Translations under genes and position numbers: made by a program
Virus record (IMG/VR): IMGVR_UViG_2711768013_000005
Direction: 5' to 3' (one strand)
Source: a virus
Lineage: Duplodnaviria > Heunggongvirae > Uroviricota > Caudoviricetes
DNA: 4,968 bases
The notes under the pieces: generated by a model
Told to the model about the DNA's origin: nothing
Database searches by the model: none
Seen by the model: the letters and a program-made list of their open reading frames with translations, nothing else
Shown here: positions 1-4,894 of the stretch, piece by piece
Numbering within the stretch: position 1 is the stretch's first letter
Layout of the letters: each line of letters begins with the position of its first letter

Positions 1-17
1 GCCTGTCCAATGTGCAT

Positions 18-51
18 AAAAAAATCCGGAAACAAGTGAGCGTTTCCGGAT
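18..51 (-). terminator. Rho-independent (intrinsic) terminator about 33 nt downstream of the portal stop codon
   Basis: Seen in sequence: minus-strand RNA reads AAUCCGGAAAC-GCUCACUU-GUUUCCGGAUU followed by a U tract (7 T; plus-strand A run at 18-24). Perfect 10-11 bp GC-containing stem (plus 24-33 / 42-51) with an 8-nt loop. On the plus strand the stem is followed by TCTTACACA, so it is functional mainly in the minus direction. Confidence 0.6.
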
Positions 52-84
52 TCTTACACAGCCACTGGATCGGTCAACTGATCC

Positions 85-1241
85 TTAACTGATCGGCATT
101 ACACCACCGGGACGCGGATTCATATCTTCCAGGTCGCGGCAGTCATTGGAAGAGTAAATTCCCCAGTTGATCCCGGTGGCGTAGGCTTCAAAACGGGACT
201 TCATATCCCCGCGCAGTAACGCCCCGGCGTTAAATTTGGCGTAATAAACGCCCTGCTTACTTTTTCGTACCAGTCCGGTGTTGATCCGCTGTTCGATGCG
301 GGTCAGATACGGCACCAGTGAATAGTTGATAAATCCCAGCCCCAGCTCTTCGATATTGTTGAAGGTGGCGCGATCGGTGTTCTGCACCATGTGCAACGGC
401 ACCCGGAACAGACGACAGATTTCTTCCAGCTGAAACTTGCGGGTTTCCAGGAACTGACTGTCCTCGGCGTTCAGCGCCATCGACTTCCAGTCCAGCCCCA
501 TTTCCAGAATCATCGGGCGGTGAGCATTGCCAAGCCCCGTGTGACACTCCTCAAAATCTTTCTTCAGACGCTCGTAAGCATCCGGCGTGAGCTTTTGTTC
601 CGTACGCAACACACCGGATGTCACCGCACCATTACTAAACAACCTGGCACCGTGCTCCTCGGTTGCCGCTGCCAGTGAAATGGCCTCACGCGCATACGCA
701 ATGGGATTCAGCCCGACAAGTCCATCCAGCGTCAGGGTGCGCACATGCCAGATTTCATTCTGGGTCAACACATCCACGGAACCATCCGGAAACGTCACCT
801 GATAAACCGGCTGCCACTGGCTGTTCAGCTTCGGTTCCACACAGCCCGGATCTATCGGAAGAAGCTCCACCACTTCTCCCAGTGCCTTTACCTTGTAGGC
901 GTAAAAATTCCCCCGTAGACACAGGCAGACAATAACCAGCTCCCAGAATTCCTGCGGTGTCATGTAGCCATTAGGTTTTGCCGAAACCAACTTATGCAGT
1001 CGTTCATCCACCGCCCGTGTTTTCAGGGTACCGCTGATTTTGTAGAGACTGCAGGGCAGCATACCAACAGACTCTGCCAGCACCCTGACGCAAGAATAGA
1101 CCGCCGTCAGGCGCATGGCCCGCTGGCTACTGATCCGCTTTCCGGTATAGGTGTCGTATGACAGCCCGATAGCATCAGCAGTTCTGCTGGCGTGGTCACC
1201 GGCACATCGCTTTTTCGTTGAAATAATCCCGAAAAGAACAC
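85..1241 (-). CDS. Phage portal protein, HK97 family; 5' end appears frameshifted (alternative boundaries: in-frame ATG at 1114-1116, or the long ORF to 1332)
   Basis: Minus-strand ORF open from 1332 to TAA at 85-87 (415 codons). Translation carries the portal-like segment AMRLTAVYSCVRVLAESVGMLPCSLYKISG near the N-terminus and has the expected size and position (immediately downstream of terminase large subunit). In this frame there is no ATG/GTG/TTG between the TTG at 1330-1332 (no RBS, overlaps the upstream small ORF) and the ATG at 1114-1116. A GTG at 1239-1241, preceded by GGAGGT with a 5-nt spacer and overlapping the upstream stop (TAGTG), opens a different frame that runs 44 codons to TGA at 1107-1109. 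Family assignment is from memory of HK97-type portals. Confidence 0.85.
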
Positions 1242-1423
1242 TATTTACCTCCGCCGACAGACTGCCGTGTACGGTCGAGATATCGCGCCACCAGCCACGA
1301 CCAGAACAGGCACAGCGCCCCGGCAACAACAAAACCCGCCGGGGGATAAATCAGCCAGGCACCATACGCCAGCAAAAGCGCACCCAGCACGCCCACCAGA
1401 GGCGCGAGAATCAGCATGATCAT
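1241..1423 (-). CDS. Small hypothetical membrane protein (60 aa, two predicted transmembrane helices) between terminase large subunit and portal
   Basis: [63 protein letters not shown]: two hydrophobic stretches followed by a basic tail. ATG at 1421-1423 is preceded by GAGGT at 6-nt spacing, 11 nt after the TerL stop (TAA, 1435-1437). Its stop TAG (1241-1243) overlaps the GTG of the putative portal start. Function unknown; the call rests on RBS, coupling and hydrophobicity only. Confidence 0.55.
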
Positions 1424-1434
1424 AATTACCTCAG

Positions 1435-3168
1435 TTAAAGCGAGCGGATCCCGTAGGACTCAATGTGGTCAGACAGCGTGTCTTCTTTCTCGTACAGCAT
1501 GGCTCTGCCAACCGCCATAATCAGCGCAACTGCACCATCGATTTTGTTTTCCGCCTGCTCTTTGACGGGTTTCACCACATCATCGTTACCCGGCATGTTT
1601 TTGCCGACCACGTTGCCGATACACCAGGTCATGATGGGATTGCCGTCATGATGAAAACGTCCCGATTCAATCGCTGCTTCCAGCTCTTTCATCGGATCGG
1701 ACATATTGGTGAAGTTCTGGACGATAGTGACGGGATTCAGGTCTTCATCAGCAAGGTCATGTGACAACCCGGTCGCCCCGAAGGGGTCGATGGGTGACTC
1801 ACTGACCGGGCTGATTTTGTTCGCCGCTTTGGCCTCCTCGAGGATGTAGCGATAATCCACCTCCGCACCATCGGTAACGGTCAGAACGCCCATTTCCACC
1901 CATTTCTGAAAGCGTTCGGCTGTCCGTCGATCTTCATTTTTCTCGACGCTGTACACCGTGTCATACGGTACCCAGAAACGCGGGGCCACACTGTAGTAAT
2001 GCGTTTTACCGTCAATCTCGCGGGTATAAAGTCGCGCCATGCTGTTCATATCCAGCTTACGCGCCAGGTCAAAGGCCAGAATGCACGGCTGCCCCTCGAA
2101 CTGCTCAAGGGTCAGTGATTTATCCTCGCAGCTCTGCCAGCTCACCAAGTTGAAATACGCCGAACGCGCCGACACCCAGATATTGAGGTGTTTTGTTTTA
2201 AAGACGTTTGCCAGACGGGCGTTATTTTTCGCACGCTGCTGCTGACTTAACAAAAATTCGCGATAAACCGACACGCCAATATTTGGATTGGCTTTTTCCA
2301 GCACCTGCGGGCCGGTCCAGTCGTCACCTTCATCAACGGTATAGATGATCCCGAACAGTTCATCGTTAGGCACCGAGCCGTTGAGCATCTCGATGACTTC
2401 CCGCCGCTTGTCGTAGCACGGCCCCTCAATGTTGTACCCGGCGGTGGTGATGGCCCACATCAGTGGCTGACGTCGCGCCCCCATCCCGGTAAGCATTGTG
2501 GTATAAAGCGCATCGGTGGCATGCTCGTGATATTCATCAACCACGGCACAGTGGGGTGATGAACCATCACCTGGGTTGCCGATCAGCGGTTCAAACCGCG
2601 CGCCATCCTCCGGACGGTTCATGTTTGAGGCGTTAACCTCAATCCCGAACGCTTCCGTCAGCATGGGTGTGCGTTTACACATCAGTCGCGCCGGGCGAAA
2701 GACTTCCCACGCCTGTTTCTCTGTCGTGGCACCGGAATACACTTCCGCGCCAAACTCGTTATCACAGGCAAAACAATACAGGGCAACACCGGCAGAGATT
2801 GCTGATTTGCCGTTCTTACGGGGGATTTCGGTGTACACCTCCCGGAAGCGGCGCAACCGGGTGCCTTTATTGACCCAGCCAAACGCACAGCAGATCACAA
2901 ATAGCTGCCACGGCTCCAGCGTGATGGGCATCCGTTTGAATGCCCACTCCCCCTTGGTGTGCGGCAACAGCTGAATAAATTTCGCGGCCCGTTCAGCCAG
3001 GTCCTTGTCGAAGCGGTAACGAAACGACTTACTTTTTTCCGCCATCAGGTCATCAAGATGGCGCTGGCAGGCCTGAATCACAAACTGGCAGGCAACAATC
3101 TTTCCGCGCACGACATCCCGGGCATACTGATTTGCAGCATTTACGTTGGGGTAAGATTTCCGGCTCAT
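1435..3168 (-). CDS. Phage terminase large subunit (Terminase_1-type, the partner of P27-family small subunits)
   Basis: 577-codon minus-strand ORF with ATG at 3166-3168 and TAA at 1435-1437. Contains an ATPase P-loop-like motif ([14 protein letters not shown]), an acidic DEYHEH segment consistent with Walker B, and C-terminal nuclease-domain length. The ATG overlaps the TerS stop (ATGA at 3165-3168), indicating translational coupling. Family recognition from memory. Confidence 0.95.
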
Positions 3169-3659
3169 GATTCGATAATTTTCAGAAACGGGTTAGTGGC
3201 TTTCTTCTGCCCCGCCAGGCCAATCAGACGCTGGCGGCTGCTGGGGTCGAGTCCGAGCATTGCCCCCGTGCTGCTCATCTCGGACTCCTGTTCTTTTTTG
3301 GCGGTCAGCTCCGGATTTTTGACCCTGCCGCCCATTGCACCGGTGATGGTGTTGCCCTGTATGGCAATATTTTTCACGGCACGTCGCCAGAACTCATAGG
3401 CCACGCACCACCGCTCAAGTACCGCCAGGTCAGTCACGCACAGCAGGCCCTGACCGCAGAGTTCTTTGGTTGTCAGTTGCCACATGATCGTGGCGAGAGG
3501 GAGATCTTCTTCAGCGAACCACTCTGGTGGCTCAACACCTTTGATGGGCGTAAAAACAGGTTCATCTTTGTTCAGGGCTCGCTTGCCGGGGTTTCCGGCC
3601 AGCGCCTTGCGCGCCGTTGGCTTGGGGCGACGCCCGGAACGCCCCGCCGTTCCAGCCAT
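3165..3659 (-). CDS. Phage terminase small subunit, P27 family
   Basis: Translation from ATG at 3657-3659 begins [34 protein letters not shown], the characteristic N-terminal signature of P27-family TerS (GRP.KPT..K.L.GNPGKR.LN..EP). AGGAG lies 9 nt upstream of this ATG. The ORF track starts 3 codons earlier at a GTG (3666-3668) that sits only 1 nt from the SD, so the ATG is preferred. Stop TGA at 3165-3167. Confidence 0.88.
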
Positions 3660-3706
3660 ATGCGGCACTCCTGGTTAAATTTCATTTTTCGCGGGTATAA
3701 AAAAAC

Positions 3707-3760
3707 GATGGGGCGGGCAGTCCGGAAGACGTCAGGTCACAGGGATTTGCCCCGCCCCTC
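3707..3760. other. GC-rich interrupted inverted repeat in the HNH-terS intergenic region; candidate cos / terminase recognition site (alternatively an attenuator-like hairpin)
   Basis: Seen in sequence: GGGGCGGG (3710-3717) and its reverse complement CCCGCCCC (3751-3758) separated by 33 nt, extendable by GCA/TGC with one bulge. On the minus strand the 3' arm is followed by ATCG plus T7. The position, between a terminase-associated HNH endonuclease and terS, is where cos sites lie in HK97-like cos phages (established knowledge). The functional assignment is inference. Confidence 0.3.
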
Positions 3761-3780
3761 CCTACAAGTGAGAATAATTA

Positions 3781-4131
3781 TCACCGGATTCGTTCGCGCG
3801 CTGTTTTCGCTTTATGGCAGGGCCAGCACAGACTCTGCAGGTTGCTGTCTGCGTCTGTTCCGCCATGCGCTTTCGGGATGATGTGGTCGACGGTTTTCGC
3901 CTCGCTCACCACACCGACACGCAGACACAACTGACACAGACCTTTATCGCGCTTCAGAATACGGGCACGAATCACCGTCCATTTTGAGCCATAGCCACGC
4001 TGGTGGCGGCTCAGTCCGCGCTGGTGCTGCACCCAGCCTTCACCGCGATGTTTATCGCAGTAACCCGAACTGTCTGTGGTTGTACCTGCACATCCACGCT
4101 TACGGCAGGCACGTGGGATTAGTGATGGCAT
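3781..4131 (-). CDS. HNH endonuclease (terminase-associated, HK97 gp74-like role)
   Basis: 116-aa ORF with ATG at 4129-4131 (GAGGT 5 nt upstream) and TGA at 3781-3783. Contains the HNH core VDHIIPKAHGGTDADSNLQSLCWPCHKAKT flanked by Cys pairs (CQLC ... CWPC), plus an N-terminal Cys/His cluster (C..C ... C..H). Located immediately upstream of terS, as is typical. Confidence 0.9.
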   Translation of the reverse strand: MPSLIPRACRKRGCAGTTTDSSGYCDKHRGEGWVQHQRGLSRHQRGYGSKWTVIRARILKRDKGLCQLCLRVGVVSEAKTVDHIIPKAHGGTDADSNLQSLCWPCHKAKTARERIR

Positions 4132-4173
4132 AAATACCTCATACCCTGCGAAATGTTTACCACGATAAAAAGG

Positions 4174-4418
4174 CTACTTAATGCACTGAGTGCGGATATA
4201 CTCCTGTGCCCCTTCCAGTTGCATCTGCATCGTCATCAGCCGCTCTCTGAGGGTGAAATAATCCCGTTCAGCGGTGTCTGCCAGTCGGGGGCTGGTTGCA
4301 TTATCCACGCCGGAGGCGGTGGTGGCTTCACGCACTGACTGACAGACTGCTTTGATGTGCAACCGACGACGACCAGCGGCAACATCAGCGCGCAGAGTTT
4401 CATTTTCAGCTTTCGCAT
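4174..4418 (-). CDS. Rz: Rz-like i-spanin, C-terminal fragment (5' portion lost in the N run)
   Basis: Translation after the gap, AKAENETLRADVAAGRRRLHIKAVCQSVREATTASGVDNATSPRLADTAERDYFTLRERLMTMQMQLEGAQEYIRTQCIK, closely matches my recollection of the lambda Rz C-terminus (..DVAAGRRRLHIKAVCQSVREATTASGVDNAASPRLADTAERDYFTLRERL..). Stop TAG at 4174-4176. The N-terminal residues shown in the ORF track before the X run (MNNVAIIT..) are out-of-frame junk. Confidence 0.85.
4236..4418 (-). CDS. Rz1: Rz1-like o-spanin outer-membrane lipoprotein, embedded in the +1 frame of Rz
   Basis: ATG at 4416-4418 lies immediately next to the first N. Translation MRKLKMKLCALMLPLVVVGCTSKQSVSQCVKPPPPPAWIMQPAPDWQTPLNGIISPSESG (60 aa) has the lipobox LVVVGC and proline-rich core, nearly identical to lambda Rz1 as I recall it. 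Stop at 4236-4238. Its RBS lies inside the N run. Confidence 0.9.
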   Translation of the reverse strand: MRKLKMKLCALMLPLVVVGCTSKQSVSQCVKPPPPPAWIMQPAPDWQTPLNGIISPSESG

Positions 4419-4589
4419 NNNNNNNNNNNNNNNNNNNNNNNNNNNNNNNNNNNNNNNNNNNNNNNNNNNNNNNNNNNNNNNNNNNNNNNNNNNNNNNNNN
4501 NNNNNNNNNNNNNNNNNNNNNNNNNNNNNNNNNNNNNNNNNNNNNNNNNNNNNNNNNNNNNNNNNNNNNNNNNNNNNNNNNNNNNNNNN
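4419..4589. other. Run of 171 N (assembly gap or masked sequence)
   Basis: Directly visible. It interrupts the lysis cassette between the SAR-endolysin N-terminus and the Rz1 start. ORF-track entries containing X runs are artefacts of translating N. Confidence 1.
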
Positions 4590-4679
4590 ACCACCTGGGC
4601 CAGTGATTAACACAGATGCTATAGCAACAGCCCCACCACCAATAGCAGCTGCAACAGCCTTGCGTAATGATGGCGACAT
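4590..4679 (-). CDS. SAR endolysin (phage 21 R-type lysozyme), N-terminal fragment truncated by the N run
   Basis: ATG at 4677-4679 with GAGGTG 5 nt upstream, overlapping the holin stop (TAATG). Translation [30 protein letters not shown] matches my recollection of the signal-anchor-release (SAR) N-terminus of the phage 21 endolysin ([30 protein letters not shown]..). The remaining ~135 aa are not present in the window. Confidence 0.75.
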
Positions 4680-4894
4680 TATTCACCTCTCGCAGCCTTA
4701 CGCTTGTCTTCTCTTATTTTGAAATACAGATTTGTCAGATAAGTCAGAAGCCCCAGAAGCAGACTTCCCAGCACACCAATCGCAGCCCACTGTGATGGAC
4801 TGACCTGATCCAACCACTGCAAAAACCAGTAGCCGGCACTGCCGGCGGAGGTGCCGTAGGCAATGCCTGTTGATATTTTTTCCATCTGATACAT
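4679..4894 (-). CDS. Class II holin, S21-type pinholin, with dual-start motif
   Basis: 71-aa [77 protein letters not shown] at 4892-4894 and a second in-frame ATG at codon 4 (4883-4885), two transmembrane segments and a charged C-terminus. Nearly identical to the phage 21 / DLP12-type S holin as recalled. G-rich SD-like sequence (GGGGGGCGGG) just upstream. Stop TAA at 4679-4681. Confidence 0.92.

Follow-up and report, generated by a model that had tools for sequence, protein, structure and literature searches.

The window, by which we mean the whole analysed stretch of 4,968 nucleotides, carries part of the late module of a lambdoid prophage of the HK97 type, with all genes of interest on its minus strand according to the open reading frame (ORF) listing and the Pfam labels. 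It is part of a phiP27/ST64B-like prophage remnant of about 10 kb in the Shigella sonnei chromosome, the upstream border of which is formed by an IS3-family element adjoining a DnaB-like gene. From the high-coordinate end of the window downwards, the following features were recognized:

4679-4894, minus strand: holin gene.
Lysozyme, Rz and Rz1 genes, minus strand, broken up by a run of 171 N at 4419-4589.
3781-4131, minus strand: intact gene for an HNH endonuclease of 116 aa, directly upstream of the terminase genes terS and terL.
3165-3668, minus strand: small terminase (TerS) gene.
1435-3168, minus strand: intact gene for the large terminase (TerL) of 577 aa, with the Pfam labels TerL_ATPase and TerL_nuclease.
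1241-1423, minus strand: gene for a ymfR-like small membrane protein of 60 aa, the stop of which overlaps the GTG of the portal gene; its homologues are annotated as ymfR or as membrane protein.
102-1241, minus strand: HK97-family portal pseudogene, holding codons 1-380 of about 413, with one frameshift and a cut 3' end.
102-113, minus strand: 12-bp target sequence of IS4, GTCCCGGTGGTG, repeated at the right end of IS4 in the IMG/VR contig L021.
1-101, minus strand: left end of IS4, which includes a strong hairpin, 17 nt from the start of the transposase gene and the terminal inverted repeat of the element.

An HNH gene beside terS and terL is the usual arrangement in HK97-like phages, in which the HNH protein assists terminase cleavage at cos. 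The exact TerL product of the window is present in 4305 index blocks, and the loci returned for it include CP000038.1, which we take to be the chromosome of S. sonnei Ss046. TerL and ymfR precede the portal gene in the window; what follows it is the prohead protease gene in the homologues, and IS4 and then chromosomal genes in closed S. sonnei genomes.

The 5' end of the portal gene is split between two reading frames, and the features that define the split are:

1247-1252, minus strand: Shine-Dalgarno sequence GGAGGT, 5 nt (AAATA) before the GTG and invariant in the homologue alignment.
1107-1241, minus strand: native portal start frame of 44 codons, from GTG at 1239-1241 to TGA at 1107-1109.
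Between 1179 and 1180, minus strand: deletion of 1 nt, one G of a GG pair being gone by alignment with four intact homologues.
85-1116, minus strand: ORF of 343 aa called as 'portal protein' by annotation pipelines, starting at an internal ATG that corresponds to residue 43 of the true protein.

The GTG start with GGAGGT 5 nt upstream and with the TAGTG overlap between the ymfR stop and the portal start, all pointed out in an earlier note on this DNA, is plainly there in the sequence, and the same GTG is used in Escherichia coli A36, E. coli C311 and phage phiP27. The ORF listing likewise agrees with that note in that the start frame ends after 44 codons and the portal body is encoded in another frame, which is the -1 frame relative to the GTG frame and lies within an ORF at 85-1332 of the minus strand. 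The canonical start codons of the body frame comprise three TTG codons (1332, 1329 and 1326) and an ATG at 1116. The proposal that this frame has no plausible start past the ymfR-like ORF holds to the extent that the three TTG codons lie inside ymfR and the ATG is the only one found beyond it. The 343-aa ORF called from this ATG extends into IS4, which supplies the final five codons (V, M, P, I, S) and the TAA stop (...GG-VMPIS*), and the annotation of Ss046 has a 414-aa ORF from an upstream TTG (AAZ89394.1). An exact look-up found no called gene for the 44-aa product of the start frame, which is uninformative, since ORFs this short are rarely called.

The lost base was located by a DNA alignment with four intact homologues, from E. 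coli A36, E. coli C311, phiP27 and ST64B, which contains a single gap (CTGGC to CTGC). At this gap the homologues read GAGCTGGCGGA and the window reads GAACT-GCTGA, and the substitutions on either side (GAG to GAA and GCG to GCT) are silent only if the frame is restored. The idea that the loss of one base had split the gene was thus correct, the window being one base shorter than the intact homologues, while its placement in the minus-strand GGG run (plus-strand CCC) at 1165-1167 was not: all four intact homologues also have GGG there, and the real gap, at 1179/1180, lies 12-14 nt upstream in the gene direction. When a G is inserted at 1179/1180, the translation reads ...PAELADAIGLSYD..., as in ST64B and C311, and the repaired peptide at the site, ...PAELADAIGLSYDTYTGKR..., matches both exactly. 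The repaired N-terminus then reads MFFSGLFQRKSDVPVTTPAELADAIGLSYDTYTGKR..., including a stretch, ELADAIGLSYD, that is identical in ST64B and C311, and the restored N-terminus as a whole equals theirs except for A13V. The junction peptide suggested earlier, ELLMLSGLSYD, occurs in no homologue, ELADAIGLSYD being the ancestral reading. The 44 codons of the start frame consist of 21 authentic residues, followed by out-of-frame residues up to the TGA, so the recognition of an HK97-type portal N-terminus in the GTG frame was right for its first 21 residues. A repair at the GGG run was also considered; it is mechanically possible, and it is contradicted by the homologue alignment.

Comparison with intact homologous prophages, a check that the earlier note had proposed, gave a consistent picture. 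In E. coli A36, E. coli C311 and phiP27, the portal is annotated from the same GTG as one frame of 413 codons, with one base more than the window, and is followed by the HK97 prohead protease; in ST64B, it is annotated from a position 3 nt upstream of that GTG and is also one continuous frame. Intact homologues beginning at the ATG at 1114-1116, which would have spoken for a genuine start there, were not what was found, the homologues starting at the upstream GTG. The phiP27 portal (NP_543090.1, L38) and the A36 prophage portal (WP_240745495.1) share with the window the gene order HNH, TerS, TerL, ymfR, portal, as well as the GTG start, the Shine-Dalgarno sequence and the TAGTG overlap, and 370-371 of the 380 residues match those of the repaired window. 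Both copies are single continuous 413-codon frames, whereas in the window one G is missing and IS4 interrupts the gene past codon 380. Nucleotide identity of the restored gene to these two is 93%, with 9-10 of 380 residues different; since 67-68 codon differences are synonymous and 9-10 non-synonymous, the gene was under purifying selection until recent times. The ST64B portal Sb4 and the portals of Shigella phages SfI, SfII and SfIV come from the same HK97-type module for packaging and head formation, with 86-89% nucleotide identity; these are intact, functional phage genes, that of ST64B differing at 33 of 380 residues. A related phage in IMG/VR (L015, 94.8% identical) contains exactly the 30-mer predicted for the intact gene and reads through all 216 codons held by its locus.

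The restored 380-aa protein matched the Pfam family PF04860 (Phage_portal) with 359 bits (E=2.5e-107; profile cut-off 39.1 bits) over positions 2-321 of the 321-position profile, the domain covering restored residues 47-373. In a megablast search with window positions 900-1450 (551 nt, the portal start), 1394 E. coli and 20 phage records were matched, and the top matches consistently exceeded the query by one base (552 against 551, for example). The top match among 5426 complete E. coli genomes was 95.5% identical, and no near-identical intact sibling of the portal start was found in that set. The name ymfR occurs in the E. coli annotations beneath these matches. A partial parallel may be offered by e14 of E. 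coli K-12 (the ymfN-ymfR-beeE region), a cryptic lambdoid remnant in which terminase genes and ymfR stand beside a degraded portal-family pseudogene; it belongs to another host lineage and carries other lesions.

A full-length portal might still be produced from two frames by a programmed -1 ribosomal frameshift or by transcriptional slippage, -1 being the direction needed to join the frames and an A5 run (CGAAAAAGC, 1215-1211) lying within their overlap. We regard this as vanishingly unlikely. The start frame has no heptamer of the X XXY YYZ type across the 135-nt overlap, the A5 run is also present in homologues with a single frame, and the two-frame layout is not conserved, the portals of A36, C311, phiP27, ST64B and L015 all being single-frame. 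A shift anywhere away from the deletion site would moreover insert non-homologous residues, and the product would come from a gene without its 3' end and without head genes after it.

The missing base could in principle be an error of sequencing or assembly in an otherwise intact gene, a possibility that the earlier note had left standing beside that of a genuine inactivating mutation in a decaying prophage. The scaffold gap of 171 N at 4419-4589 does mark the source assembly as a draft, and no type of assembly error is more common than a single-base indel. Nevertheless, in each S. sonnei-type locus retrieved (L005-L014 and L016-L029, amounting to 22 distinct records), the 29-mer with the deletion occurs once and the intact 30-mer is absent, and all 22 distinct records share an identical 211-nt stretch carrying the deletion. 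These records include 11 complete-chromosome CP accessions (that of Ss046 and ten others), three draft contigs, each representing 2-15 samples, and six IMG/VR contigs. On the low-coordinate side of the N run, window positions 1-4418 show 100% identity to CP000038.1 and several further closed chromosomes. The N-truncated 343-aa product carries the name portal protein [Shigella sonnei]; it occurs on at least 1000 contigs and in 1695 index blocks. The site itself is a GG dinucleotide and not a long homopolymer, and we know of no sequencing platform with systematic errors at a GG dinucleotide; an independent lesion by IS4 in the same gene also speaks against an intact gene. The case against a sequencing error is one of concordance across assemblies, some of which could share polishing against a common reference. 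Given the same deletion in 22 of 22 distinct records and the 343-aa call on at least 1000 contigs, the portal deletion is to be read as a genuine mutation that is fixed among the S. sonnei records examined, and not as an assembly artefact, which we consider extremely unlikely.

Indels elsewhere in the module vary by assembly (split TerS or TerL in L025, L028 and L029; one-gap differences in L008 and L010), yet the portal deletion never varies among the S. sonnei records compared. The split or shortened TerS and TerL calls in the chromosome-scale records L025, L028 and L029, for example 194 + 341 aa or 498 aa, may reflect either further decay in those strains or indel errors of long reads. Neither the deleted 29-mer nor the intact 30-mer matched anything in a contig collection with one genome per species, from which no inference was drawn; GTDB places Shigella within the species E. 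coli, and such a set presumably holds no S. sonnei.

The 3' end of the portal gene carries a second lesion. While the earlier note had recognized the frameshift at the 5' end, it had missed the cut of the 3' end by IS4 at window positions 1-101. Portal homology ends at window position 102, and positions 1-101 match IS4 copies in 2591 E. coli genomes by megablast, where the features are annotated as IS4 family transposase. The junction ...GTCCCGGTGGTG/TAATGCCGATCAG is common to the S. sonnei loci that span it, and it cuts the portal after codon 380 of 413, removing the C-terminal 33 residues or so. In L008, the full IS4 element is 1426 bp long and encodes a 442-aa product with matches to Nterm_IS4 and DDE_Tnp_1; closed genomes have either this complete 1426-bp element or an IS4 with an IS3-family insertion inside. 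An uninterrupted frame from native start to native stop is thus absent in the window copy, which is frameshifted at 1179/1180 and has its C-terminus replaced by IS4, so that the locus descends from the PF04860 family but is, by this comparison, a pseudogene.

The right flank of IS4 in closed genomes is chromosomal, either raiA-pheL-pheA (confirmed against E. coli) or bamE-recN-nadK-grpE, and these differing flanks point to IS-mediated rearrangement at the site between strains. IS4 adjoins raiA-pheA-tyrA-aroF in L008, L009 and L027, and bamE-recN-nadK-grpE, together with the nested IS3-family insertion, in L022-L026, L028 and L029. In the closed S. sonnei genomes, about 10 kb of prophage is left at the site, with no head or tail genes past the portal.

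The IS4 cut also bears on whether the portal truly starts at the internal ATG at 1114-1116, in which case a functional N-truncated portal would be made and the GTG ORF would be irrelevant. Pipelines call the 343-aa ORF in most S. sonnei records, and this ORF holds the whole Pfam Phage_portal domain. However, the portals of A36, C311 and phiP27 start at the upstream GTG, with a strong Shine-Dalgarno sequence and the stop-start overlap with ymfR (ST64B starts 3 nt further up), and the 42 N-terminal residues that such a start would omit are conserved across phages of 84-95% nucleotide identity. The ORF also ends in IS4-derived codons without the C-terminal 33 residues, and the protease, capsid and tail genes are not adjacent. 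A functional portal from the internal ATG is therefore extremely improbable; a truncated product of the 343-aa ORF, with its whole Pfam domain, could formally still be made.

What may be the distal half of the prophage is seen on the IMG/VR contig L021, in which the right end of IS4 is followed by GTCCCGGTGGTG/ATGTCTATCTC..., the 3' remainder of the portal gene, and then by protease, capsid and tail genes; the junction between the IS4 right end and the portal remainder reads ACTGACTGGCATTAGTCCCGGTGGTGATGTC. In the IMG/VR scan, L021 alone matched this junction. IS4 makes target-site duplications of 11-13 bp, and the 12-bp repeat in L021 looks like one. In closed genomes there is no 12-bp repeat around the IS4 copy, the right flanks being those on the raiA or the bamE side. 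Taken together, the 12-bp repeat and the portal remainder in L021 suggest that IS4 was probably at first a simple insertion, followed by IS4-IS4 recombination. An exact-sequence look-up of the protease and capsid of L021 returned the 228-aa form of the protease, named as an S. sonnei product, for 43 contigs of up to 4.83 Mb.

Positions 1-4300 of L021 (IMGVR_UViG_2663762996_000003) join the frameshifted 5' end of the portal to an uninterrupted portal 3' end and the 5' end of the protease gene; the contig continues with an N, an IS4 from which roughly the first 50-68 nt are missing, and another copy, with small differences, of the portal 3' end and protease. L021 is either a true recombinant or a scaffold chimera that joins two related prophages of one genome. 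Its use as a guide to the order of the two lesions was rejected, because the segment ends at the N join and a second copy of the portal 3' and protease 5' ends follows, so that it may be a chimera.

The reading that we hold with high confidence is that the portal gene is a twice-hit pseudogene of an S. sonnei prophage remnant, struck by a 1-nt deletion and by IS4 as two independent lesions, with no rescue and under neutral decay. By this account, the loss of one G from the GG in codon 23 (1179/1180) shifts translation from the GTG into a frame that stops after 44 codons and deprives the portal body of its start. The entry of IS4 after codon 380 has removed the last 33 codons or so, and a later IS4-mediated rearrangement would have parted the portal from the prohead protease, capsid and tail genes. 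The whole would represent the neutral decay of a defective prophage, its host lineage being one in which IS expansion and accumulation of pseudogenes are known. We infer that no portal is made from the locus and that recombination between IS4 copies moved the distal prophage genes or caused their loss. Both lesions are, to judge from the sequences compared, fixed in the S. sonnei records examined.

The remnant might instead have been kept for a function, with the lysis cassette and the HNH-TerS-TerL genes either domesticated or serving in trans another related prophage, or a satellite, from which a working portal would come; the portal frameshift would then mark a change of function and not simple decay. 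The lysis cassette and the HNH-TerS-TerL module are indeed intact and invariant across S. sonnei, yet TerS and TerL are broken in some assemblies. S. sonnei is a recent clone, and its recent common ancestry leads one to expect such invariance without selection. Nothing in the analysis supports selection on the remnant, and we judge retained function to be very unlikely.

Under neutral decay as a twice-hit pseudogene, the locus exemplifies a kind of event that is already known, IS-driven and indel-driven gene decay being documented for Shigella. According to Hawkey et al. (2020, PMC7373316), IS4 belongs to a set of five IS that have expanded across all Shigella species, and Shigella genes have been inactivated by both IS insertions and frameshift indels; that study is a genome-wide survey. 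A keyword search of the article yielded no mention of the portal locus, and the word 'prophage' is absent from its main text (PMC7373316). A literature search for this specific locus found nothing relevant. The practical outcome is a correction of annotation, with one portal pseudogene, frameshifted at 1179/1180 and interrupted by IS4, to replace the 343-aa or 414-aa 'portal protein'. The two lesions could also serve as markers for the prophage remnant in S. sonnei. Beyond annotation hygiene, the significance is slight.

Two further observations concern the hairpin and the N run. Within the IS4 end, a hairpin of 14-16 bp with a T7 run (window 20-56, minus strand) lies directly upstream of the transposase ATG at 17-15, with a minimum free energy of -22.3 kcal/mol and a z-score of -5.9 against shuffled sequences. 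It looks like a terminator or a translation-masking structure, which is predicted to be capable of protecting the transposase against read-through that enters from the portal side; a sigma-70-like match at 77-50 overlaps it. The scaffold gap of 171 N (4419-4589) corresponds to 624 nt in closed S. sonnei genomes (L005 2127-2750), the sequence replaced running from the 3' part of the lysozyme gene into the 5' part of Rz. Beyond this gap, which may be an assembly break, the sequence is known again from precisely the ATG with which the embedded Rz1 lipoprotein ORF begins (MRKLKMKLCALMLPLVVVGC...).
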